DNA of 44,326 nucleotides, from the IMG/VR virus record IMGVR_UViG_3300021339_000003, positions 1 through 44,326 of that record; one strand, 5' to 3'. Made by a program: the position numbers and the translations under genes. Numbering within the stretch: position 1 is the stretch's first letter; each line of letters starts with the position of its first letter. Origin of the DNA: a virus. Positions 3,672 through 21,774 of the stretch are shown one piece after another. Under the pieces are notes generated by a model. That model saw only the letters and a program-made list of their open reading frames with translations, was not told the DNA's origin and ran no database searches.

Positions 3672-3749
3672 TTTGGTCGCCCCGAAAGGGGCGCGGATTG
3701 AAACCTGACTTGGTGCTGACCTGCGCTGGTGTTAATCTGACATGGTGTT

Positions 3750-3790
3750 GGCCGGCGCTGGTGTTCCCGGCGTCGGCCTTCTTCTTTTCC
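3750..3790 (+). terminator. strong rho-independent terminator after the capsid block (T7 T-phi-like position)
   Basis: 12-bp stem 3750-3761 / 3767-3778 (GGCCGGCGCTGG ... CCCGGCGTCGGCC, two G-T wobbles) with a 5-nt loop, followed by TTCTTCTTTTCC. Confidence 0.8.
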
Positions 3791-3794
3791 TCCT

Positions 3795-4451
3795 GTGACG
3801 AGATTAGAATTCACAAACTCAGCTCTCGCGATCATCGGCGAAGTGCCCATCGACGACGTTGACCAAGCGGTGCCACGGGCACAGCGCGCCAATGCCGTTT
3901 TCCTGCCGCTCCTAGGCCGTTTCCTGCGGGAATTCCCGTGGAACTGGGCTCAGACAAGGGTCGTGCTTGAGCCGGCCTCCCCCGTGCCGCTATTCGAGTG
4001 GTCTGAACGCTACGAGTTGCCGGAGAACTTCGTCACGCTCGTTCAGGTCAATGGTGTGTCCTGTGGTCCCACCAAGGTGGGGGGCATTTACCAGATCGAA
4101 GGGACCAACCTGCTCCTTCAGGCGTCCACCGCGCAGATTCAATTCGTCTATCGTCCGATCGCGGAATCTGAAGTCGATCCGTTCTTGGCTCTCATGGACC
4201 CGTTGTCCGCAGACGCGTTTACTGTTTTGCTGGCATCGAAACTCGCAAACCCACTCGCTCGCGACTCAAACAGTCTGGGTCAGGCGTTGTATCAGCAGTA
4301 CATGAACGCCGATCTTCCGCGCGCACGCACGAAGAATGCCCAAGAGTCCAAGTTGCCAGTTTATCCTGCCGCCATCGATTCACGATCGATCAGAGCGCGA
4401 TCAGTTTGGGGCGGCGGAAGCGGCGTCTATCCCGGAATTTCCGACCTCTGA
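3795..4451 (+). CDS. head-to-tail adaptor / tail tubular protein A (T7 gp11-like)
   Basis: GTG start just after the terminator. From memory, the N-terminus TNSALAIIGEVPIDDVD...RANAVF...FPWNWA parallels the NDILASIGEPPVSTLE...ANARRIL...GWTFN start of T7 gp11. 218 aa. Precedes the nozzle genes. Confidence 0.65.
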   Translation: MTRLEFTNSALAIIGEVPIDDVDQAVPRAQRANAVFLPLLGRFLREFPWNWAQTRVVLEPASPVPLFEWSERYELPENFVTLVQVNGVSCGPTKVGGIYQIEGTNLLLQASTAQIQFVYRPIAESEVDPFLALMDPLSADAFTVLLASKLANPLARDSNSLGQALYQQYMNADLPRARTKNAQESKLPVYPAAIDSRSIRARSVWGGGSGVYPGISDL

Positions 4452-4494
4452 TCTTGTTGCCCCATCAACCGCACGTTGTCAGCGTAGCCCTACC

Positions 4495-4989
4495 ATGAAA
4501 CCAATTCCGGGATACGAAGGGCGCTACTCAATCGACGAAGACGGTCGCGTCTGGTCTCACATCAGCGGGATTTTTCTCGGCCCAGATACACACAAGGATG
4601 GCCGAAAGCTCGTTGAGCTTTACGCAGTGGGTAAGTCCAAAAAGCTGCAAATCTCGCGATTGATGGGGCTGACGTTTCTTGGAATGAAGCCAGAGCAGGA
4701 GATTGACCACAAGGACCGCGACAAGGGGAATGACACCCTCGGTAATCTGCGGATAGCGACCGTCTCACAGAATAATGCCAACCGTGGACGCCCGAAAAAC
4801 AACAAGTCGGGGTTCAAGGGTGTTTCATGGCGGCGAACAGCGAAAAAGTGGGCCGCGCACATTAAGCGCGCACCTGATCGCCAAAGACTGATCGGTCTTT
4901 TCGATCGTCCAGAAGATGCGGCGGCGGCGTACGACGCTGAGGCGCGCCGCCTATTTGGGGAGTTCGCTGCCACCAACGGCGCGAACTGA
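4495..4989 (+). CDS. HNH homing endonuclease with NUMOD4-like N-terminus and AP2 DNA-binding domain
   Basis: Motifs GYEGRYSIDEDGRVWS, IDHKDRDKGNDTLGNLRIATVSQNNANR (HNH) and SGFKGVSWRRTAKKWAAHI...LIGLFDRPEDAAAAYDAEARRLFGEFA (AP2). Visibly more A/T-ending codons than its neighbours. The longer track ORF from 4336 overlaps the adaptor gene, so I use ATG 4495. Confidence 0.9.
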   Translation: MKPIPGYEGRYSIDEDGRVWSHISGIFLGPDTHKDGRKLVELYAVGKSKKLQISRLMGLTFLGMKPEQEIDHKDRDKGNDTLGNLRIATVSQNNANRGRPKNNKSGFKGVSWRRTAKKWAAHIKRAPDRQRLIGLFDRPEDAAAAYDAEARRLFGEFAATNGAN

Positions 4990-4992
4990 GCC

Positions 4993-5190
4993 ATGGGCGC
5001 AGCCCGTTCCGGAACTGTGCTCGTTTCGTTCAACAGCGGAATTATCAACCCGCGTCTCGACACGCGTGCGGATTTGCAGCGTGCGCAGTCGTCAGCTCGT
5101 GAGCTGAAAAACTTCCGGGTTGAGGTTCACGGGCGCGTGACGCGTCGTGCGGGCACACAAATGATCGCACCGGCCAAGGTGGTGTCATGA
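4993..5190 (+). CDS. free-standing copy of the nozzle N-terminal module (65 aa); possibly a relic fragment
   Basis: RSGTVLVSFNSGIINPRLDTRADLQRAQSSARELKNFRVEVHGRVTRRAGTQ aligns without gaps to residues 5-56 of the next ORF at about half identity. TGA-GCC-ATG junction with the HNH gene and ATGA overlap with the next gene. Arg codons are 7 CGT of 9, versus 0 CGT in the paralogous segment. Confidence 0.6.
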   Translation: MGAARSGTVLVSFNSGIINPRLDTRADLQRAQSSARELKNFRVEVHGRVTRRAGTQMIAPAKVVS

Positions 5191-7436
5191 GCCGCGTTCG
5201 CTCCGGGAAAGTGCTCGTTTCCTTCGGCTCCGGCATCTTCGCGCCCGACCTCGACAGCCGCACAGACCTCGACAGCGCGGCCAGCGCCGTGCGGGAAATG
5301 AAGAATTTCCGCAGCGATATATTCGGCGGCGCTAATCGCCGCGCCGGCCTTCAGTTCGTCGCTGCCGTCCGCGTTCCCGTGCCGTTCGACTACGTGAGCT
5401 ACGAAGGCAGCGGCACCATTTACGGGATCACAGAATTCGGGGACCTCTCCGACCCACCCCGCAAATACCTGCTCCTCGAAAGCAACAAGGCAGCCGTGGC
5501 ACGACGCGCCACACAGCTTGCACCCGATATCATTGCCGCGTGGAACCTCAACAGTTCGGCCTACGAGAACACGGCCGGAACGCGCATCGAGCAAATCTCG
5601 TTCGTTGGTGGCAATGTCACCTCCGGGGCCCTGACCGACGTGCCCGGCCAGCTCGGTTCAGCCAGCCTCGAAACCCTCGACGGCAACCAGAATTCATTTG
5701 AGGACGTGGTGGAGCCCACCGACTGGCTCCCGTACCCGCCCGTCTGGACGCGCAACAAGACGGAGAAGCATTTCGATGTCACCTCGCTGGACATGCCGTC
5801 GGGAGAGACGCGCTACCTCTATCACATCGCCAATTCATTCCTGCGCATCGGCGGCAACCAAGGGACAGCCCGCGGCCTTGGCGTTCGTGAACCCACCTTC
5901 GTCACGGACCACTGGGAAATGATCGTGGACGTGGGCGGGGACGGCGTGAACCTTGGAACGGCCATCGGGCCCTCCTGCTATTGCAAAATTGCCAACGGAA
6001 ACGCCGATCCCGGTACCGTCGCATCAACGGACTTCTTCATCGGCAAGGCCGACAACGTACCAGCCAATTCCGGACCGTGCTTCGGGAGCTTCGCCCTTTC
6101 GCTGCCGCCCAATTGCTCCGTGCGTTTCATGGTCCATCGGGACGTGGACGATCAGGTGCCGCAGCAAATCGGCACCGTTTACAGCGGGGGCACAGGCAGT
6201 CCGTCGGGCCTGACAGATGCCGCCTATGACGGCTGGCTTTACCTTCCCGCGACGGACGCCCTCCCATGGAAATATCAGGAACGCCTCGCCAACGAGGACA
6301 CCATGGAGGCGGCGCTCATTCGTGGCGCTGTTCCCTCCGGCACAGCCGACACAGCCGAGACGACGGCGTACACAGGCGGCATCACGGCCGAATCCGTCGT
6401 TCCCATCACGTTTACCGCGCGCACGTCGCGTGTCTTCAAAACCTTCACGGGCCTTATCACTGGCCACCGCTACGAATGGACCGTCAACCTGAGGACGTCG
6501 CTTCTTCCGGCCGGCGCTCCCGTCGATTCCTCGGTGAGCTTTCAATTCGTGGCGTCCTCGTCCGTCAAAGCCGTCAGCTATTTAATGCAGGCCCCCGTTG
6601 GTTACCGCCAGCGCACGCTTGGCTTCGCGATCGACGATCTCGGGCCTGAGCCCGTGACGCCAACCTACGAGAGCGAGACGCTTATTGCCTATGGCAAGGT
6701 GCTCGACGCCGGTTCCACGTGGAACAACGCGGCTCTGACGCTCGCGAACAATTTCGTTCTCGGGCTGAAATCGGCGCTCGGGGCCTCGTTCTCGAAGATC
6801 AACTATCTGCTCCCGTTCATCGGCCCCGACCTAGCAGCGGGTCTTGTCCCGCTGCTCGATCCGAGCAACGCGGGGCTCCCGACAAACATCGCCTTCGTAA
6901 ACGGCGACTTCTCGCAGACGACGGGCCTGACGGGCAACGGCACAACCAAGCGCCTTGTCCTCAGCCTGACGCCGAACATCCTCGGAGCGGCCCAGAATGG
7001 CGGTTACGGCGTGGACGCCCTCGCCATCGGCTCCACGGGCGAGCCCATGGGCTGCTACAACGCCGGAGCCGGCGGATATTTCGTCATCAGCTTCAACTAC
7101 GGCGTTTCGACCATCTTCTATTGGGGCAACCCGGGCAATCCTGCCACCCAAGCCGTGGCTCCGTCCGCTGGCTTCTACCTTGGCCAGCGTTCAGCCGCCA
7201 CGCTGCGCACGCTCTACAAGAACGGCGCGAGTGTCGCGACCAACACGACCAACGACACAGCCTCCGGCGGTGGTTCGCCCATCAACGTCATGTCCTCCAA
7301 AGACCCGGACGACGTGCCGTACTTCTGGAATGGTCGCGCGAGCCTCTTCCTGACGACAGACGGCAGTTTGACCGGCCCCGAGGTTTCTGCCCTAAACACG
7401 GTGGTTGCGGCGTTCCGCACAGCCGCAGGCCGCTAA
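5187..7436 (+). CDS. tail protein: nozzle-type N-terminal module fused to a large beta-rich region and a C-terminal LamG/ConA-like domain (receptor-binding protein candidate)
   Basis: The N-terminus RSGKVLVSFGSGIFAPDLDSRTDLDSAASAVREMKNFRSDIFGGANRRAGLQ is paralogous to the ORF at 4993. The C-terminal ~200 aa (GFYLGQRSAATLRTLYKNG...WNGRASLFLTTDGSLTGPEVSALNTVVAAFRTAAGR) matches, from memory, lectin-type jelly-roll domains at the ends of phage fibres. Confidence 0.55.
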   Translation: MSRVRSGKVLVSFGSGIFAPDLDSRTDLDSAASAVREMKNFRSDIFGGANRRAGLQFVAAVRVPVPFDYVSYEGSGTIYGITEFGDLSDPPRKYLLLESNKAAVARRATQLAPDIIAAWNLNSSAYENTAGTRIEQISFVGGNVTSGALTDVPGQLGSASLETLDGNQNSFEDVVEPTDWLPYPPVWTRNKTEKHFDVTSLDMPSGETRYLYHIANSFLRIGGNQGTARGLGVREPTFVTDHWEMIVDVGGDGVNLGTAIGPSCYCKIANGNADPGTVASTDFFIGKADNVPANSGPCFGSFALSLPPNCSVRFMVHRDVDDQVPQQIGTVYSGGTGSPSGLTDAAYDGWLYLPATDALPWKYQERLANEDTMEAALIRGAVPSGTADTAETTAYTGGITAESVVPITFTARTSRVFKTFTGLITGHRYEWTVNLRTSLLPAGAPVDSSVSFQFVASSSVKAVSYLMQAPVGYRQRTLGFAIDDLGPEPVTPTYESETLIAYGKVLDAGSTWNNAALTLANNFVLGLKSALGASFSKINYLLPFIGPDLAAGLVPLLDPSNAGLPTNIAFVNGDFSQTTGLTGNGTTKRLVLSLTPNILGAAQNGGYGVDALAIGSTGEPMGCYNAGAGGYFVISFNYGVSTIFYWGNPGNPATQAVAPSAGFYLGQRSAATLRTLYKNGASVATNTTNDTASGGGSPINVMSSKDPDDVPYFWNGRASLFLTTDGSLTGPEVSALNTVVAAFRTAAGR

Positions 7437-7439
7437 CCC

Positions 7440-9584
7440 ATGCCCGGACCCGTCACGCTTTGGCCGTTTGAATTCAGTACCACCACCTCGTTCATCATCG
7501 AGGTGGGTGACGCCTACATGCGTTTCTTCACCAACGGCGGACCTGTGCTGAGTGGTCCGAGCACGCCGTACGGAATAGTGACACCGTACGCCGAGGCCGA
7601 CGTTTTCGAGCTTCAGCACAAGCAAATCAACGACGTCGTTTACATCGTCCATCAATCGTACCCCGTCTACAAGCTGACGCGCATTGCCGACGACGACTGG
7701 GACCTCATCATTGTCGATTTCTTCACGCCGGCCATGCTGAACGAGAACGTCACGTCCACCACCATTACCGTGGACGGACAGACGGGCTCCATCAACATGA
7801 CGGCCACAGCCAACCTGTTTCTGCCCGGCCACGTCGGCAGCTATTGGCGCATGGGCTTCATTCGGGACGCTTTCACGCTGGGCCAGCTCATCAACGGCAA
7901 CGCGACGAGCAACGGCTACGAATTCATCGGTACGTGGTCCCTGAGAACCTACGGCACATGGGCTGCCGAGATAGCCGTGCAGCGTTCGCTCGACGGTGGG
8001 GCGACGTACATGGACATGCTTTCCGTGACGGGAGCCGCCGATCGTAACATCGACGAGACGGGCGAAGCCGAGCCCGGGGCGTTCTACCGCTTCGTGATTC
8101 GCAACTACGTCTCTGGAGCGGCCACAGGCGGACGTCTCGTTTTCGAGAGCCCTGATTCCATCGGCTACGGCTTCGTGCAAATAACAGCCGTAGGCTCAGG
8201 GTTGGAGGCGACAGCCGACGTCATCGAGCCCTTGAAGTACCTCCGTTTCTTTGGAGACACGGAAGGCGTCCCAACCACCACCTTTTGGGCCGAGGGCGCA
8301 TGGAGCGACGTGCGCGGCTACCCCCGCGCCGTCACCGTCCACGAGCAGCGGCTCCTCTTCGGCGGCACGTCCTTCCAGCCGGCCACGTGGTGGGGCAGTG
8401 TCATCGACGATTACGAGAATTTCCTATACGGCGTGAACGACGACGACGCGTACATGCTGACACTGGCCGGCCTTCAGTTGAACATGATTCAATGGATGGT
8501 TTCCGTGACCGCTCTCATCATCGGCACCTCGGGCGGGGAATGGGCCGTGTCCGGAAACACACAGGGTGCGATCATCACGGGCACCACGGTGGACGCGAAG
8601 CAGCAAAGCTCGTTCGGCTCCGAGCACATTGCCGCCACAGAGCAGCAGGGGCAGGTGCTGTTCATTCAACGAAAGGCCCTCCGCTTCCGTCAGATTCAGT
8701 ACCAGATTGATTCCAACCAGTACAAGGCGACAGACCTGACGGCCTACGCCTCCCATCTCACCGTTTCGGGAATCGTCATGTTCGCCTTCCAGCGCGATCC
8801 CACGCCCACGCTGTGGGTGGTGACCAACGACGGACAGCTTCTCGGGCTCACCTACGACCAAGAGCAGGGTGTCCTTGGCTGGCACCGTCACGTCACGGGA
8901 CCCGAGGACGGGGACAGCTTCGAGGCCGTTGCCTGCATCTACGGCGACAACGACGCCGACGATGAAGTGTGGGTCGTTGTCGCCCGTCTCATTGGTTCCA
9001 CGCTTACGCGCTTCGTTGAGCGACTGAACCCGGTCCGCTGGGAAGCCAAGGCTGACGCCTTCTATGTCGATTGCGGCCTGACCTTCGACGGGAGCCCGCT
9101 CACGGAGTTCACGATTGCCCATCTGCCGAACACGACGATTGACGTCCTCGCCGACGGCAGACCGTACCTCGACGTGGAGACCGATGCCCATGGGACGTTC
9201 ATTCTCCCCGAGGCTGCATCTGTCGTGCAGGCGGGTCTGCGCTACGTCTCTGAGCTGAAGCCGTTCCGGTTCGACGCGGATTCCATAGCCGGCGCTTCAG
9301 CGGGCCGAATCAAGCGGATTACGAAAGGCTCCCTGCGTCTCTTCCGCTCCTCGGGCGGGCAGTACGTCTACAACGGCCAGAACGTGAACATTGAGATTCC
9401 TGAGAGCGTCACGGTTCCGGACGCGGACAACCCGCCGCTCATCGGAGACCTTGCGCCACTCGACGTCCCGGTGGATTTCGTCACTGGCTACGATTTTGAT
9501 CCAACCTTTGTGATTCGCCAGAACGACCCGCTTCCGCTTTCCATCATCGCGATGCCCGTGGGTTACGACGTCGAAAGCACATGA
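7440..9584 (+). CDS. nozzle / tail tubular protein B (T7 gp12-like) body, lacking the N-terminal module
   Basis: 714 aa after the adaptor. It starts at ...LWPFEFSTTTSFIIEVGDAYMRFFTNGG, the segment that normally follows the N-terminal module. From memory, the C-terminus GRIKRITKGSLRLFRSSGG...QNDPLPLSIIAMPVGYDV parallels the GRLQLRRAWV...SDETTPLNIIGCGWEG end of T7 gp12. Confidence 0.65.
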   Translation: MPGPVTLWPFEFSTTTSFIIEVGDAYMRFFTNGGPVLSGPSTPYGIVTPYAEADVFELQHKQINDVVYIVHQSYPVYKLTRIADDDWDLIIVDFFTPAMLNENVTSTTITVDGQTGSINMTATANLFLPGHVGSYWRMGFIRDAFTLGQLINGNATSNGYEFIGTWSLRTYGTWAAEIAVQRSLDGGATYMDMLSVTGAADRNIDETGEAEPGAFYRFVIRNYVSGAATGGRLVFESPDSIGYGFVQITAVGSGLEATADVIEPLKYLRFFGDTEGVPTTTFWAEGAWSDVRGYPRAVTVHEQRLLFGGTSFQPATWWGSVIDDYENFLYGVNDDDAYMLTLAGLQLNMIQWMVSVTALIIGTSGGEWAVSGNTQGAIITGTTVDAKQQSSFGSEHIAATEQQGQVLFIQRKALRFRQIQYQIDSNQYKATDLTAYASHLTVSGIVMFAFQRDPTPTLWVVTNDGQLLGLTYDQEQGVLGWHRHVTGPEDGDSFEAVACIYGDNDADDEVWVVVARLIGSTLTRFVERLNPVRWEAKADAFYVDCGLTFDGSPLTEFTIAHLPNTTIDVLADGRPYLDVETDAHGTFILPEAASVVQAGLRYVSELKPFRFDADSIAGASAGRIKRITKGSLRLFRSSGGQYVYNGQNVNIEIPESVTVPDADNPPLIGDLAPLDVPVDFVTGYDFDPTFVIRQNDPLPLSIIAMPVGYDVEST

Positions 9585-10135
9585 TCCTCTACGAACTGGA
9601 AGAATTTGAGAAGCGTCACGGCTTCCGATGTGAGTTGGGAGTCAGTCTCGCAACGTACGCGGCCTATACGGCGCTGGCTGCTTCAGCAGCCGGTGGCGTC
9701 ATGGCCTACAAGAGCGCCAAGGATCAGGCAGCGGCCACTACCATGGCCGCGAGCTACAACGCCACGGCTCAGGAGAATCAAGCGACGCAGGGGGCCAACT
9801 TCGGGCGGGAGAACGTCCGCCGTACCATTTCCTCAGGGAACCGCTTTCTGGCCACGCAGCGGGCTTCTCTCGGTTCAAGTGGTGTCGTGGGCTCCACCGG
9901 CTCCCCGCTCCTCGCCATGGCCTACAATGCGGGCGAAGCGCGCCTGCGGGCGCTGGAAGCTTCCCAGCAGTCGTCAGCCGCCTACGGCGCAGGACTGGCC
10001 CGCGCTGGCATGACGCGCTACGAGGGGGCGCTTGAGGCCAAGGGCTACAAGCGCCGCGCCACGGCGTCCCTCATCTCCACGGCTGGACAGCTCGCTTCGA
10101 GCGGGTACGCGTTCAGGGACGCTGGAAATATCTAA
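9581..10135 (+). CDS. internal virion (ejection) protein, T7 gp14-like position
   Basis: 184 aa with an ATGA overlap onto the nozzle stop. Ala/Gly/Ser-rich with a hydrophobic stretch, LATYAAYTALAASAAGGVMAY. First gene after the nozzle. Confidence 0.45.
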   Translation: MILYELEEFEKRHGFRCELGVSLATYAAYTALAASAAGGVMAYKSAKDQAAATTMAASYNATAQENQATQGANFGRENVRRTISSGNRFLATQRASLGSSGVVGSTGSPLLAMAYNAGEARLRALEASQQSSAAYGAGLARAGMTRYEGALEAKGYKRRATASLISTAGQLASSGYAFRDAGNI

Positions 10136-10629
10136 ACGTGAGCCGGCCTCTTCCACCATCTGCGTTTGCGGCGATTGTTCGATTGCTGCTTGGCCGAAAC
10201 CCAATGGCAATTTTCTGGGCAATAATTCCCGTTGTTGTCTTTGCGATCAATCTGCATGCCGTCGGGTCGTGGGCCCATGTCGGCGTAGAAGTTAGCAAAC
10301 GAGTTTTTCCACCTGTCGCAGACAGTGATGCCTCGTCCGCCCCAATTCTCAAAATCTCGGGTGCTTGGGGTGTAGCACCTGCGTTTCATTGCGGCCCAAA
10401 TGTAGTGTTCGGGAGCGGCAGAGAGCCCGTGTCTGGTATTTGCCTTCTTAGTAGCATCGAGTTTGAAGCACCCGCAGCTTTGCGTGTGGCCAGACAGGAT
10501 TTTCGCGGTGACAACCACGCATTCGTTCCCGCACTCGCAGCGGCACTTCCACGCAGCACGACCGTTTGCCGCGTGTGTCCGCTCGATAGGTGTGAGCCGG
10601 TTAAACTTCTGGCCTTGGAGGTGTTTCAT
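10132..10629 (-). CDS. free-standing HNH/zinc-ribbon homing-endonuclease-like protein, antisense to the virion operon
   Basis: 165 aa from ATG 10629 (CACC-ATG context). FNRLTPIERT...WKCRCECGNECVV...LSGHTQSCGC...HGLS..PEHYIWAAMKRRC...NWGGRGITVCDRW...FYADMGPRP.GMQIDRKDNNGNYCPENCHWVS matches a recurrent phage family usually annotated as HNH endonuclease (from memory). Lower G+C than its flanks. Confidence 0.6.
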   Translation of the reverse strand: MKHLQGQKFNRLTPIERTHAANGRAAWKCRCECGNECVVVTAKILSGHTQSCGCFKLDATKKANTRHGLSAAPEHYIWAAMKRRCYTPSTRDFENWGGRGITVCDRWKNSFANFYADMGPRPDGMQIDRKDNNGNYCPENCHWVSAKQQSNNRRKRRWWKRPAHV

Positions 10630-10686
10630 GGTGCAATCGCAAATGCTCCCGTGTCTTATGTCAACTAAGCAGACAGGCGCAATCTG

Positions 10687-12051
10687 ATGGCAAGAATCCA
10701 ACTGATTCAGGCGGGACAGGCCGAAAACGTCCAATACCCGGGAGCCGTCGTAAATTCGGATGCCGTACGTGCGCCCGCTCAGGGCAATGCCGCCATCGGC
10801 GCAGCCGTGGGCCAGATTGGGCAGGAAGCGGGGGAGCTGGCCCAACGCATGGCGGAAGCGAAAAACCGCACGGCCATTCTGGACGCCAACGTACAGCAGC
10901 AGCAAACCTTCGACAATTTCCATACGTCCCTCGCCAACCAGCCCGACGAGACGCAATGGCGTGACCAGTGGCAGAAGCAGGTGGTGTCCGAACAGTCGCG
11001 CATCGACAGCCTGAAGCTGTCACCCGACGCCAAGCGGATCGTTGACGACAATTACAAGAAGTGGGTGGCCAACACCAACGCGCAGGTGAACACGATCACG
11101 GCTGCCGCTGGCATCAAGCGCATGACCAAGACCAATTCGGCCAATGCCGAATACCTCGCAGAGAAGGGACAGCTTTCAGAAGCCTACGGGACCGTGGACG
11201 TGATGGTCTCCACGGGACTCATCAACAAGGACGACGGCATGCTGTTCAAGCGCCGCCTCCAGACCACTTCCGACATGTCGTCCATCAACGGCATGATTGC
11301 CGAGAATCCCATTGCCGCCCCCGACGAACTGAAGGCCAAGGAAAAGGACGGCTCGTGGAAGCTGTTCCCGGAACTCGACCCCAACGCCCGCCGCATCAAG
11401 ATCAGGCAGGCCGAAGAAGAGGCAGCGCGCCGTCGTACCCAAATCGGCTCCGGCTTTCAGAACCGGATCAACCTTGCTCTTGCTGGGGCCGGACAGCCCC
11501 CGACTCGCGAACAGCTTCAGGCGTCTGTGGACGCCAAGGAAATCAGCCCGCAACAGATGAAGTACTTTCAGGGGCAGATTGCCGGTACGGCCGGCTACGC
11601 TGAGAACCTCGTCAGGAAGGTTAAACTCGGGGAGCGTATCAACACGTGGCGTCCCGGACAGGAGGATTCAGACATCAGGCTCAATCAGATTGCGCAGGAC
11701 ATGGCCGGACTGCCGAAGTCCATGCAGGACGACCTTGAGGCGGCTCTCAACCGCTCGGTTTCAGCCAAGGGTGATCCAGCCGAAAAGAATGGCGTGGACT
11801 ACATCAACTTTCTCCTTGGCCATGGCGACCTCGGAACCGACGAGAACGACAAGCCGTCGCCTGAGGCGTACGGAGTTGCGGCGAGACTCACGGACGACCT
11901 GAACAAATTCCTTCAGGCCAACCCGAAAGCGACGATCTCGGAGCAAACCGATTTCGTGAACGCCCAGTCGAAGCTCCCCAAGGATCAGCGCAACAGCGGT
12001 ACCGTGTTCAATTGGGCCACCGGCCGAGCGCCCGCCAAACCGTCAAGGTAG
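10687..12051 (+). CDS. internal virion (ejection) protein, T7 gp15-like position
   Basis: 454 aa, Gln/Ala/Lys-rich and helical-looking. Second core-protein position. Confidence 0.45.
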   Translation: MARIQLIQAGQAENVQYPGAVVNSDAVRAPAQGNAAIGAAVGQIGQEAGELAQRMAEAKNRTAILDANVQQQQTFDNFHTSLANQPDETQWRDQWQKQVVSEQSRIDSLKLSPDAKRIVDDNYKKWVANTNAQVNTITAAAGIKRMTKTNSANAEYLAEKGQLSEAYGTVDVMVSTGLINKDDGMLFKRRLQTTSDMSSINGMIAENPIAAPDELKAKEKDGSWKLFPELDPNARRIKIRQAEEEAARRRTQIGSGFQNRINLALAGAGQPPTREQLQASVDAKEISPQQMKYFQGQIAGTAGYAENLVRKVKLGERINTWRPGQEDSDIRLNQIAQDMAGLPKSMQDDLEAALNRSVSAKGDPAEKNGVDYINFLLGHGDLGTDENDKPSPEAYGVAARLTDDLNKFLQANPKATISEQTDFVNAQSKLPKDQRNSGTVFNWATGRAPAKPSR

Positions 12052-18271: not shown

Positions 18272-18453
18272 AGACACCCGCTCTCTACGATCCCATTACG
18301 TTTTTTGCGCTGCCGGTTCACGAGAGTATGGAGCCGGAAATCGCCGTGCTTGAAGCACGCGACCAGCCCACGGGCTTCGTCGACGAGAGCGGTGACACGT
18401 GGGTTGCGGTGTTCGTGGACGGAGACCTGAAACGGCAGAAGCTCGTCGAATGA
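18268..18453 (+). CDS. hypothetical protein (61 aa)
   Basis: ATGA overlaps at both ends link it into the glycosyltransferase operon. Confidence 0.55.
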   Translation: MKTPALYDPITFFALPVHESMEPEIAVLEARDQPTGFVDESGDTWVAVFVDGDLKRQKLVE

Positions 18454-19175
18454 AAGTCTCCGTTGTCGGTCAGGACACGCTTGCAAGCGCCGTGGCTGAA
18501 TGCTGCTCGTCCCACTTCACCGTCACGCGCCTCCCGGATTCCGACACTGATGTGCTGTGGCTTTGCGAGGACACGCCCATCATGCCCGACGGCATGCCGG
18601 ACGTTGAGTCGATTGTCTCGGGCGCATGTCTGGCCATGGCTGGCGTCTCCCCCTTAACCCTCGTCGTCCTGTCCTCCCAAGTGCCTCTTGGCACCACGGC
18701 ACGGCTGGAAGCCGCGTTCCCGCAGCATCGTATTGTCTGCTGCCCCGAGAACATCCGCGTAGCGTCGGCCGTGGCCGACTTCAGGCAGCAGACCCGCATT
18801 GTCGTGGGCGTGCGTGGCGAAGCGCGCCCTGCGCTCCTCGCGGAGCTTCTGGCCCCGTTTACGTCCCTCATCATCTGGACGACGCCCGAAACGGCGGAAT
18901 TGGTGAAGCACACGCTCAACGCCTACCTCGGGCTGACGATAGCGTTCATCAACGAGATTGCCCGCATCACGGCTCCGTACCAATGCGACATGAACGCCCT
19001 CGCCCGCGCCCTGCGCACGGAAGGACGCATCAGTCCCAAGGCTCCGCTCCTTGCCGGTCCCCCTTTTGGCGGGGGTCATCTTGAACGGGACATCCGTGTG
19101 CTGACGACTCTCGCCGTGAAGCAGGGCGTTTACGTTCCCTTGGTCGCCAACATTCTCGCGAGTAACCGGGCATGA
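18450..19175 (+). CDS. UDP-glucose/GDP-mannose 6-dehydrogenase-like protein, truncated and apparently catalytically dead
   Basis: 241 aa from ATG 18450. Family blocks present: SSQVPLGTT, CPENIRVASAV, RIVVG, AELVKHTLNAYLGLTIAFINEIA, PFGGGHLERD. The Rossmann GxGxxG is degenerate (GQDTLA), the Cys nucleophile position is His, and the protein ends ~25 aa later, so it lacks the C-terminal UDP-sugar domain. Confidence 0.65.
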   Translation: MKVSVVGQDTLASAVAECCSSHFTVTRLPDSDTDVLWLCEDTPIMPDGMPDVESIVSGACLAMAGVSPLTLVVLSSQVPLGTTARLEAAFPQHRIVCCPENIRVASAVADFRQQTRIVVGVRGEARPALLAELLAPFTSLIIWTTPETAELVKHTLNAYLGLTIAFINEIARITAPYQCDMNALARALRTEGRISPKAPLLAGPPFGGGHLERDIRVLTTLAVKQGVYVPLVANILASNRA

Positions 19176-19951
19176 ACTGCATTTTTCAGTATTGGCTCTC
19201 CCGTCCCGTACTCCCCGGCGCAGAGGCTGGAGCCGCCGCCATGGCAGCCTACGCGAAGATGGTGGGAGCGGACTACCGCTTTGACCGGCACGACCCGTAC
19301 ACCAACAGGCTGGGCGTTGACGCCAGGTGGTTTGACAAGCTGCGCCCCGTCTATGACCCCACGTTCAGGCCGTACGAACGCGTGCTTGTCTGCGACGTTG
19401 ACGTGTTTCCCGTCGAGGGAATCACGGACAACATCTTCATGGAGGCCGTCGGCGACTTCGGCATGTGCGAGGAGCCGGACCAACCGTGGATAAGGGAGAA
19501 GTTTCCGTCGTCCATCTTCAGCAGCGAGAACGATAAGAAATGGGCTGCGTGGTGCGCCGCCAAATGGGGCTGCAAGATTCCGAAGGACGACAAGGGACGC
19601 GTGCGCCAATGGAACGCCGGCCTGATTCTCTTCTCTGCTGCCGGCGTGGAGAAGATGCGTTCCGTTCACCCGCAGCCAAAAGCGTACGTGGAATCAATCA
19701 AGGGCGCAGGGCTCACGGCCTCGTACGCGACCGAGCAATGTTTTCTCAACGCCCTCGCGTTCTCAGGACTACTCAACTTCACGCCGCTCTCCGTGGAGTA
19801 CAATCGGCAAGTCCACGGCCTGAAGGACGGAACGAAGTACGACAGGCGAACTGCGGACACCAAATTTGTCCACGTCCAAGAACGCGCAGCCGATCACAAC
19901 GACGCCGCGTGGCACCACCGGATCGTAAATTCGCACCGTGGTCAAAGCTGA
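19172..19951 (+). CDS. DxD glycosyltransferase (GT-A fold), paralog 3
   Basis: MNCIFQYWLSRPVLP...AAYAKMVGADYRF...YERVLVCDVDVFPVEGITDNIF...WNAGLILFS...EQCFLNAL...KFVHV. ATGA overlap upstream. Confidence 0.65.
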   Translation: MNCIFQYWLSRPVLPGAEAGAAAMAAYAKMVGADYRFDRHDPYTNRLGVDARWFDKLRPVYDPTFRPYERVLVCDVDVFPVEGITDNIFMEAVGDFGMCEEPDQPWIREKFPSSIFSSENDKKWAAWCAAKWGCKIPKDDKGRVRQWNAGLILFSAAGVEKMRSVHPQPKAYVESIKGAGLTASYATEQCFLNALAFSGLLNFTPLSVEYNRQVHGLKDGTKYDRRTADTKFVHVQERAADHNDAAWHHRIVNSHRGQS

Positions 19952-20495
19952 GATAGTTGCTGCGGATCTCGCAGAGTTTTACGTCCTTTTACGCGCCGCC
20001 CAAGAGCGCGCCCACGGTCCCGATTACTGCGCCCACCACGGATTGATAGTCGATGCTGCGAAAGAAGGCTGCGAGACGTACGTCGAGCTGGGTACTAATC
20101 AGGGCTGCACGCTCGCCTGTGCCCTTTTGGCAGGCTTTCGTTGGGCATTTGGGGTGGACATATCCCCCGGCCCATTCAGAGCCGTGGAGGCCCTATTCCA
20201 AGCCGATGCGAAGCGATGTGACCAAGTGGTCGAAGTGTTCGGGCAGGACAGCCGCAACCCGCTCGGTTTCCCCATCGACTTTCTTTTGATAGATTCGCTC
20301 CACCGTCCGGAGCATTTGCGCTCGGAGCTGAAGGTGCATGGTCCGTTTGTTCGTCAGCAAATCCTCGCCCACGACACCACCAAATATCCAGAGCTGGCCG
20401 TGGAGCTGGAGCGGTGGTCAAAGGACAATGGTTGGACTGTCGCAATTCGCGAGTCTCGCGGCCACGGGCACATGCTGTTGAAACGTCAGACATGA
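19938..20495 (+). CDS. class I SAM-dependent methyltransferase (CmcI/Methyltransf_24-like)
   Basis: ETYVELGTNQGCTLACAL (motif I) and IDFLLIDSLHRPEH. GTG start overlaps the upstream gene by 14 nt. Confidence 0.6.
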   Translation: MVKAEIVAADLAEFYVLLRAAQERAHGPDYCAHHGLIVDAAKEGCETYVELGTNQGCTLACALLAGFRWAFGVDISPGPFRAVEALFQADAKRCDQVVEVFGQDSRNPLGFPIDFLLIDSLHRPEHLRSELKVHGPFVRQQILAHDTTKYPELAVELERWSKDNGWTVAIRESRGHGHMLLKRQT

Positions 20496-21061
20496 CGCTA
20501 CAGCAGATTTTCGAGAAGCATGGCACGGACAAGGCACAGCATTTTTACCACGCCGTTTACGAGAAGCTGACGCCACCGAATAGGCTCCTTGAGGTTGGCG
20601 TTTGGAAAGGCGCTTCCCTGCGGGCGTGGTGCGAATGGTGGCCAGATGCGGAAATTACCGGCGTGGACATTGGCGCTCGGGGCATCGTGCAGCGCGTTGA
20701 CCGCGCTGTCGTCCTTCAGTGGGACTCCACCAAAGGCGGCGGTCTTCCGAGTGTAACCTTTGACCTCATCATCGACGACGCTTCCCACAGGCCCCGCGAT
20801 CAGGCGAAAACGTTTACGAATCTGTGGCCGTTGCTCACTCCGGGTGGCGTCTACTTCATCGAGGACTGTTTCCCTATAGACCTCTTCCAAGACGAGGACT
20901 TCCCCGCGTGGTTTGACGCTCGTCGCGAACACTTCAACATGGCGACGTGGCTGGACCTCGCCAACGCCATCGCCGCCTCTGGCGGCACCCTCACGCGCCA
21001 CGACTTCCGCGCCCAGAGCGGCAAGCCCGACTCCGTACTCTTGCAGATCAACAAGCCATGA
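20492..21061 (+). CDS. class I SAM-dependent methyltransferase (sugar O-methyltransferase-like)
   Basis: ATG 20492 (ATGA overlap). HGTDKAQHFYHAVYEKL...LLEVGVWKGASLRAWCEWWPDAEITGVDI...FDLIIDDASHRPRDQ...GGVYFIEDC is the pattern of methyltransferases found in polysaccharide gene clusters. Confidence 0.7.
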   Translation: MTLQQIFEKHGTDKAQHFYHAVYEKLTPPNRLLEVGVWKGASLRAWCEWWPDAEITGVDIGARGIVQRVDRAVVLQWDSTKGGGLPSVTFDLIIDDASHRPRDQAKTFTNLWPLLTPGGVYFIEDCFPIDLFQDEDFPAWFDARREHFNMATWLDLANAIAASGGTLTRHDFRAQSGKPDSVLLQINKP

Positions 21062-21774
21062 GCAGCACACAGCAGCTCGCCTTCGCCATCACGCTGCCGG
21101 AGATCCCCCGCTCCATGGACAGCTTCCAGAATCTCACGCGCTCAAGCGAAGCCGTGGGCAACCCGTTTGCCGTCCACATGTGGCACGGAACGCCCGCTCA
21201 CGAAGCCATCAAAGTGATGAAGGAGGAGCGGCTTGAATGGACGTACCCGCTCACGGGATCAAAGGTGATTGGTGGACTGACCTGCACGCCATACAGCGGC
21301 AATCATTGGGCGCGTGTCGCATGCGCTCTCAGCCATCTCCACCTCTGGAAATACTGCGCCCAATTGAATCTCCCGTTCATCGTACACGAAGATGATTCCG
21401 AGTACGTGCGCAGGTTTGATCCTGCGGAGGTGAGCGATGCTGGATTCGGTGCGGTGTCTTTGAACAACCCGCACGGAGCTACGCGTAGTGCGTCGCTCTA
21501 CCATAGGAACCTTGTGCTCGGGATAAGTCTGCCGTACTTGACTTGCGCTCCGTGTCCTTGGGTGGACGAGGACGCGAGCCAGCCACAAGGACTTCCCGGC
21601 AATTCTGCCTACTATCTGCAACCGTGGTTCGCCGCCGAGTTGATCGCGAAGGTTTGGGGGGTTGGTCTGATTCCCAACGATTCGTTGATGTGTCGCCAGT
21701 GGTTCCCGGGAAAGCTGGCTTGCCTCAGGAACTACGCGACGAAAACAAATGGACGCACTAGCTTGATCCGATAG
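21058..21774 (+). CDS. glycosyltransferase family 25-like (LOS/LPS type), copy 1
   Basis: ATG 21058 (ATGA overlap). ACALSHLHLWKYCAQLNLPFIVHEDDSEYV is the GT25 signature block. Confidence 0.55.
   Translation: MSSTQQLAFAITLPEIPRSMDSFQNLTRSSEAVGNPFAVHMWHGTPAHEAIKVMKEERLEWTYPLTGSKVIGGLTCTPYSGNHWARVACALSHLHLWKYCAQLNLPFIVHEDDSEYVRRFDPAEVSDAGFGAVSLNNPHGATRSASLYHRNLVLGISLPYLTCAPCPWVDEDASQPQGLPGNSAYYLQPWFAAELIAKVWGVGLIPNDSLMCRQWFPGKLACLRNYATKTNGRTSLIR

Follow-up and report, generated by a model that had tools for sequence, protein, structure and literature searches.

A tail nozzle gene divided among separate polypeptides in uncultured T7-like phages, with its N-terminal module also borne by variable cargo proteins

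The virus record IMGVR_UViG_3300021339_000003 of IMG/VR, which we analysed over its whole length of 44,326 nucleotides (nt; positions 1 to 44,326, hereafter the window), encodes a T7-type tail nozzle, the counterpart of gp12 or tail tubular B, in the form of separate polypeptides. The nozzle body is a protein of 714 amino acids (aa) encoded by the open reading frame (ORF) ORF714 (7440..9584, plus strand, as are the other parts of the split nozzle), and it lacks the N-terminal module of about 62 residues. This module occurs twice upstream of the body: once as a free 65-aa ORF (ORF65, its module being called N1; 4993..5190) and once as residues 1-62 (N2; 5187..5372) of a 749-aa protein (ORF749; 5187..7436). 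The remaining ~687 residues of ORF749 (X; 5373..7436, of which an X family hidden Markov model (HMM) covers 5382-7433) form a cargo of beta-rich domains with a C-terminal ConA/LamG-like region, a candidate receptor-binding protein. The break falls at an exactly defined position of the nozzle chain, the pieces are conserved and under purifying selection in related phages, and the cargo differs from one lineage to another. An earlier note on this DNA had described these three ORFs and a nozzle body without a covalently attached N-terminal module; the ORF listing agrees on the former and the profile searches described below on the latter.

Profile searches assign all three products to one nozzle family. 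Against phrog_376, a tail protein family of 712 positions, ORF65 matches positions 9-60 (8e-12), ORF749 matches 9-85 (1e-9) and ORF714 matches 66-706 only (8e-145); hence both N-terminal segments resemble nozzle N-termini, as had been proposed, and the body falls short of covering the full length of a nozzle. The two module copies align without gaps between ORF65 and residues 1-63 of ORF749, with 34 of 63 residues identical (54%; BLASTP, E=3e-20). Judged from the sequences, this similarity, which the earlier note had estimated at about one half, is far beyond chance. The module HMM covers residues 1-62 of ORF749 at 4.5e-24, and the residues that are invariant across the family, namely G16, R25, D27, N40, G47, R52 and G54, are kept in both N1 and N2. 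In a Pfam scan the only match of ORF65 was a sub-threshold one to DUF2576 (E=0.099), and neither ORF714 nor ORF749 had a family at or near threshold.

Comparison with intact nozzles fixes the breakpoint. A tblastn search with ORF714 against 50,697 phage genomes matched 225 records, and in the three records that we opened, those of the Ralstonia phage RpY1, the Burkholderia phage BcepC6B (gp12) and the Pelagibacter phage HTVC203P, a single nozzle of 668-779 aa lies directly after the adaptor gene and the match of ORF714 begins about 65 codons into it. Placed end to end, ORF65 and ORF714 amount to 779 aa, a normal nozzle size as the earlier note had remarked, and an alignment of the N-termini shows them to be collinear with intact nozzles; the break is at residue 65/66, between ...AKVVS of ORF65 and MPGPVTLWPFEFS... 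of ORF714, with zero residues missing or duplicated. Likewise, ORF65 aligns to chain residues 12-61 of the nozzle of the Cobetia phage Carin-1 (8CK1) and ORF714 aligns to it from chain residue 74 (E=3.5e-65), and a family profile of N1 plus body retrieves 8CK1 at 3e-172 and the nozzle of the Legionella phage LME-1 (9EFK) at 6.5e-45. ORF714 is therefore not a single-chain nozzle, its N-terminal platform strands being found on ORF65 and ORF749 instead. Prompted by the phrog_376 match of ORF749 up to position 85, an extension of the module past residue ~62 was considered and rejected: residues 63-95 of ORF749, where X begins at the motif YGITEFGDLSDPPRKY conserved in the alignment of ORF749 homologues, are conserved in X family members devoid of the module, and the body HMM has no match in ORF749. 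The nozzle module is accordingly treated here as ending at about residue 62 of ORF749.

The tails of the T7 type are, to our knowledge, the best understood of podophage tails, and we know of no description of their nozzle other than as one chain. The window shares sequence, fold and gene neighbourhood with the nozzles of T7 (gp12), Carin-1 and LME-1, but in these both ends of a single chain build the platform barrel, whereas in the window the N-terminal ~62 residues reside on separate polypeptides, in two copies, one of which carries a 687-aa cargo. The platform of T7 gp12 is a jelly-roll barrel with three strands from the 45-residue N-terminus and the rest from the C-terminal domain, and it contacts two gp11 adaptors (PMC6702177); the LME-1 tail closely resembles that of T7 (PMC12407071). 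Given the homology to the T7 gp12 platform, ORF714 would carry an incomplete platform barrel and the ~62-residue module would carry the missing strands.

An AlphaFold2 (AF2) model of an artificial fusion of ORF65 and ORF714, based on an alignment of 33 intact homologues, had a mean predicted local distance difference test score (pLDDT) of 85 and a predicted template modelling score (pTM) of 0.80. The N1 strands in this model comprise residues 5-11, 34-39, 41-43, 49-51 and 55-60, with block-mean pLDDT of 74-93 over residues 11-60, and the junction loop (61-70) is the sole weak stretch near the module. Foldseek matched the model to 8CK1 (template modelling score (TM) 0.80), to 9EFK (0.67) and to T7 gp12 (0.57-0.59; 9JYZ, 6R21 and 7BOY), each with probability 1.00. 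Being a model of a fusion, it shows compatibility with the nozzle fold and not assembly in trans. The model of ORF749 alone was of moderate quality (pLDDT 63), with a beta-rich core at residues 68-560, and in it N2 was unstructured (pLDDT 30-37), in contrast to the homologous N1, which is ordered beside the body; this would agree with an N2 that takes up its fold only next to a partner.

The split genes lie in a neighbourhood typical of a T7-type nozzle, with the order portal, capsid, adaptor, nozzle and internal virion proteins. The T7/BPP-1-like structural module around the locus includes the portal gene (PF12236; 42426-44093), the capsid gene (PF19821; 2230-3141) and an internal virion protein gene (9581-10135). 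The adaptor gene, of the gp11 or tail tubular A type (218 aa; 3795..4451, plus strand; phrog_394 tail protein, 1.8e-30), stands where HTVC203P, RpY1 and BcepC6B have their tail tubular A gene. Between it and the body are found an HNH gene, ORF65 and ORF749, the gene order being otherwise kept.

The same arrangement recurs in other phages. A search with ORF749 recovered ten homologues (P0002-P0011), and the order adaptor, free module of 64-68 aa, module-X protein of 734-788 aa and body of ~694-707 aa is present in six other contigs, namely L004, L006, L007 and L008, as well as L010 and L011 from IMG/VR, in which X is 29-50% identical to that of the window. Eight more contigs (L013, L016, L092-L095, L097 and L098) have variants with other cargos or gene orders, and this synteny disposes of the notion that the split might be a peculiarity of one genome. 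The free module starts 0-9 nt after the adaptor stop in L004, L006, L007 and L008, and 541 nt after it in the window; the C-terminus of the adaptor is conserved among the window, L004, L006 and L007. Orthologues of N1 with 63-70 aa are encoded in 10 other loci, and a search of a protein database with the module profile returned dozens of distinct clusters of 54-71 aa from metagenomes. Among the best 120 of the 496 homologues recovered with ORF714, 42 are body-only and 78 have the module; the body-only forms, of 680-721 aa, begin no more than a few residues away from the LW.F.FS strand, with the exception of the truncated P0082 and P0130. In a neighbour-joining tree, 47 leaves descend from the common ancestor of the split forms and 40 of these are split, and therefore one or few old split events are indicated rather than repeated accidents.

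The proportion of synonymous differences (pS) for the four closest genomes is 0.53-0.80, at or near saturation, and that of nonsynonymous differences (pN) is 0.16-0.26. The ratio of nonsynonymous to synonymous substitution rates (dN/dS), computed with synonymous sites saturated, is 0.09-0.18 for N1 and 0.13-0.25 for N2, and these low values argue that free and fused copies of the module alike are maintained by selection. As far as sequence comparison goes, the split nozzle is a clade-wide, selected architecture and not the accident of one genome. Cultured phages with the split were not found: a nucleotide search with positions 3700-10200 had zero matches in the 50,697 phage records. The sole tblastn match of ORF749 in these records, to the nozzle N-terminus of the Pelagibacter phage HTVC028P, touched two annotated genes and was considered as a further split nozzle; it was rejected, since gp38 of this phage has its own module and is an ordinary fused nozzle.

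Breaks at another position were observed in three IMG/VR contigs with nozzles that are otherwise fused. In L043 (3144-3701), L065 (7744-8265) and L086 (7792-8475) the C-terminal ~170 residues are in a separate ORF, a piece that corresponds to the C-terminal platform domain (body HMM positions 522-695). The break in L065 is a single in-frame stop and that in L043 a frame change, and the piece in L086 is found ~2.2 kb downstream, after an extension of ~470 aa. These could be assembly errors, or else the nozzle may have a second natural break, located in the other half of the platform barrel.

The proteins that carry the fused module vary considerably among the split loci. Between adaptor and body, L013 has a module with a propeller-like cargo (425 aa) followed by a free module, and L094 a module with BNR-like repeats (381 aa), likewise followed by a free module; L016 has a module-cargo protein (376 aa), a free module and a 64-aa ORF, L092 a free module, a module-cargo protein (433 aa) and a 412-aa protein, and L097 a free module, a module-cargo protein (362 aa) and a 54-aa ORF. 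Two tandem module-cargo proteins of ~280-315 aa each are encoded in L093 (3311-5004) and L098 (3196-5004); in three of these four the module leads straight into a long (Pro-Ser/Thr)n linker, behind which one of the L098 proteins has a LamG-like domain. L095 has one module, which is joined to a propeller-like protein of 424 aa. In L093, L095 and L098 the scan for modules took in ~5 kb upstream and ~5 kb downstream of the body gene, and within this range no free module was found in L093 and L098 and only the cargo-fused one in L095. The tandem proteins of L093 and L098 suggest that two alternative cargos compete for one set of nozzle sites. The cargo is always fused at about residue 62, which is the point where the body begins, and each split locus examined retains at least one module. 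Hence the module, as traced with its HMM, has the organization of a modular anchor, with one conserved N-terminal unit on varied, exchangeable C-terminal parts.

The X family in turn is not tied to the module. Members without it are found in other genomic contexts (P0004 of L005, with 48% identity, P0006 of L009, P0007, P0009 and P0011). Together with the presence of the module on different cargos in other split phages, this fits one of two origins offered in the earlier note, that an anchoring module was copied onto a second tail protein; the other, in which the nozzle gene acquired a lectin-like block by in-frame insertion and a stop codon then parted the two, is not needed and not favoured. 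P0004 lies at 6001-8148 of L005, a contig from the same sample as L004, and none of the 10 scanned neighbours of this module-less homologue had a PHROG match. At 2794-9081 of L009 a He_PIG protein of 1067 aa, which itself has a partial match to the X family, precedes a 1026-aa X family protein in which a second repeat is present at the C-terminus.

As to the function of X, the term lectin-like used in the earlier note applies to the family more than to the protein: Laminin_G_3 was matched in 3 of 11 members, and He_PIG and ArabFuran-catal were also matched in members, but ORF749 itself has zero Pfam matches. A search of the ORF749 sequence against the PDB gave zero solved-structure matches, and Foldseek of its model returned generic beta-sandwich and carbohydrate-binding module (CBM) folds with TM <0.2. 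Neither Pfam nor PHROG searches revealed homology of ORF749 to the fibre anchors of T7-type phages, its PHROG matches being to nozzle families only, and the same two collections showed no T7-type tail-fibre gene among the large ORFs elsewhere in the window. Because no other fibre gene is recognisable there, the best candidate receptor-binding protein is ORF749. X would probably be its host-binding part.

We propose that the nozzle of these phages is built from separately encoded pieces. The body would furnish the beta-propeller, the tip and the C-terminal part of the platform domain, and the N-terminal strands of the platform barrel, under the adaptor ring, would be supplied in trans by the autonomous module. 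N2 would then act as the anchor that plugs the large lectin-like protein X into this platform; N1 and N2-X would share the six sockets of the hexameric nozzle, and the ~690-residue lectin-like protein would thereby be fixed at the adaptor-nozzle junction, where T7-like phages carry their fibres. As a whole this docking model, in which the module completes the barrel in trans and N2 anchors the cargo at that place, appears to us rather probable. We infer that the barrel is completed in trans, that N2 occupies the socket of N1, that X binds the host and, as a guess, that occupancy of the sockets is mixed. What chiefly places the module of ORF749 in the platform rather than elsewhere is the loci in which the ~5 kb scanned to either side of the body gene contained no free module, since in L095, L093 and L098 the body could get its N-terminal strands only from the cargo protein. 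The two modules of one genome are 60-75% alike in L008, L010, L011 and L013, as against a mean of ~40% between different lineages, and in L008 the synonymous sites between them are saturated; such likeness is compatible with a shared partner or with a history in which new cargo repeatedly received a copy of the resident module.

Several observations weigh against this docking model. The docking of N1 and N2 into the body is drawn from homology to intact nozzles, and the scan of L093, L095 and L098 extended to ~5 kb per side, so that a free module could be present elsewhere on these contigs. The similarity between modules within a genome is 45-53%, and thus not raised, in the window clade, L092, L093 and L094. 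That N2 scores poorly in the model of ORF749 may be due to the shallow alignment available for that protein (11 sequences, 6 of them with the module), and the receptor-binding role of X draws on weak domain hints, namely the Laminin_G_3 matches and the generic CBM-like folds. Finally, the free module is kept in most lineages even though a cargo fusion suffices in L095.

This retention of N1 in most split lineages also speaks for the alternative that survives best, according to which the body is completed by N1 alone and N2 has its binding site elsewhere, for instance at another position of the 12-fold adaptor ring or on N1, so that ORF749 would be an ordinary side fibre with an anchor descended from the nozzle N-terminus. 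In the window clade, moreover, the N1 orthologues (71-82% identity) and the N2 orthologues (63-76%) form separate groups with 42-60% identity between N1 and N2, which suggests some functional divergence, and in T7 a 12-fold adaptor meets a 6-fold nozzle, giving two non-equivalent adaptor contacts per platform (PMC6702177). However, binding of N2 elsewhere is difficult to reconcile with L095, L093 and L098, in which only cargo-fused modules were found within ~5 kb of the body gene. The invariant residues are kept in both copies, as expected for the same fold in the same barrel, and strands removed from a barrel, ~62 aa in all, would probably neither fold nor bind on their own. We therefore consider this alternative unlikely, if still to be reckoned with.

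The docking model could be taken a step further, to an idea that we find possible but tend to doubt, in which the platform is a programmable socket. Any protein with the ~62-aa module could be built into the tail, and the ratio of free to cargo-bearing modules, or the presence of two cargo modules as in L093 and L098, would set the number and kind of host-binding proteins per virion. If true, this would mean heterogeneous virions from one genome, a new mode of attachment by strand complementation and a natural plug-and-play display for T7-like tails.

The earlier note had also raised the possibility of readthrough of the ORF749 stop codon, yielding a 1465-aa chain of module, X and body. Direct reading of the sequence confirms its premise: ORF749 ends in GGCCGC-TAA-CCC-ATG (TAA-CCC-ATG at 7434..7442, plus strand), the ORF714 start at 7440 is in the frame of ORF749 (5187 and 7440 are both 0 mod 3), and the frame is likewise shared in L008, across TAA-ATC. 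However, in L004, L006 and L007 the two genes are in different frames and 4-13 nt apart, and the frame being shared in 2 of 5 cases, as expected by chance, we take the in-frame TAA-CCC to be coincidental. In L013, L016, L092, L094 and L097, furthermore, a free module or extra genes are interposed between cargo and body, and a fusion would put ~690 residues where intact nozzles have a short loop. Hence readthrough of the TAA at 7434-7436 is very improbable. The ORF714 start has no obvious Shine-Dalgarno sequence, and ORF65 ends in GTGTCATGA, its TGA overlapping the ATG of ORF749. Junctions of the ORF749/ORF714 type look like ordinary termination-reinitiation coupling, and the three genes would be expressed as separate proteins through translational coupling at overlapping or abutting stop and start codons and not through readthrough. 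Two other ways of joining the products were examined and rejected. A -1 frameshift from ORF65 into ORF749 lacks a slippery site, the -1 relation arising merely from the ATGA/GTGA/TAATG overlap; for a split intein or trans-splicing, neither ORF65 nor ORF714 has a Pfam match with a Hint motif, and the fragments abut exactly when compared with intact nozzles.

ORF65 is immediately preceded by a feature absent from the earlier note, a freestanding HNH-AP2 homing endonuclease gene (4495..4989, plus strand, from the likely start Met at 4495, the mechanical ORF being 4336-4989; Pfam NUMOD4, HNH_3 and AP2; phrog_99, 2.3e-36). This neighbour, along with the mobility of the X family between phage types, would favour a reading of ORF65 as the decaying remnant of a fibre-cassette insertion driven by recombination or the homing endonuclease, with a body that works without the module. 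Yet none of the relatives that share the arrangement has the HNH gene, the orthologues of ORF65 are intact in at least 10 loci with the low dN/dS given above at saturated dS, and the free module is represented by dozens of clusters of 54-71 aa, with at least one module in every split locus examined; we accordingly give this reading hardly any credence. The HNH gene resides on a 541-bp insertion (4452-4992) exactly between the adaptor stop and the ORF65 start, the gene is missing from L004, L006, L007, L008, L010 and L011, and it is a later, window-specific insertion outside the conserved system. The gene is also not what split the nozzle, as it lies upstream of ORF65 and not between the halves, and L004, L006, L007 and L008 have the same split without it. 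The stop of the endonuclease itself recreates the TGAGCC-ATG junction seen in L006, and the G+C content of its gene is 0.56, compared with 0.61 for the window. An assembly or sequencing artefact might be suspected in an uncultured metagenomic sequence such as the window, but its probability is negligible, given that the same break is present in at least 15 independent contigs of 38 to 80% identity from different samples and assemblers (Logan, JGI, ENA and IMG/VR).

Known systems share single aspects of this arrangement. The anchors of podophage receptor-binding proteins, such as the N-terminal domain of T7 gp17, the anchor and branching domains of the KP32/K11 type and the adaptor proteins of SP6 and K1-5, are folded domains that dock on the outer surface between adaptor and nozzle. 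As in the window, a conserved N-terminal module attaches a variable, exchangeable C-terminal part and the anchor is matched to the resident tail; unlike these, the anchor in the window is homologous to an integral piece of the nozzle that the nozzle gene gave up. Phage genes split in two cistrons, often near homing endonuclease genes, include nrdA and the DNA polymerase gene of T4-like phages. The resemblance here lies in an essential protein made as two polypeptides that reassemble non-covalently, as we propose for the window, and in the nearby HNH gene; the differences are that the HNH gene of the window is not between the halves and that its small fragment is duplicated and reused as an anchor. 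In the donor-strand complementation of chaperone-usher pili an incomplete beta-structure is completed by a strand from another polypeptide, which results in a very stable non-covalent joint. This is an analogy only, without homology, and several strands would be donated in the window as opposed to one, the strand insertion in the window being part of the proposed model.

In an incomplete collection of literature we found no description of a split nozzle or tail tubular B gene, and the findings point to an undescribed mode of attaching host-recognition proteins, by completing the nozzle barrel rather than by docking on its surface. Such a mode would explain where the receptor-binding protein is to be sought in genomes without a recognisable fibre gene, and in metagenomes it would aid the annotation of 60-70 aa 'hypothetical' ORFs and of the 'truncated' nozzle genes that encode the body only. 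The module, moreover, suggests itself as a compact tag of ~62 aa for engineering cargo onto podophage tails, and the arrangement is of interest to the structural biology of phage tails.

A second HNH endonuclease gene is encoded on the minus strand at 10132-10956 (phrog_374, 2.6e-63). It lies between the internal virion protein gene (9581-10135) and a 454-aa gene (10687-12051), and syntenic relatives are without a gene there. With the HNH genes at 4495-4989 and 10132-10956, the tail and ejection module of this genome contains at least two homing endonuclease genes. Further on, downstream of a 1605-aa internal protein, the region 18399-21774 has PHROG matches to a methyltransferase, a family-25 glycosyltransferase and a UDP-glucose-dehydrogenase-like protein, which are unusual beside a structural module.

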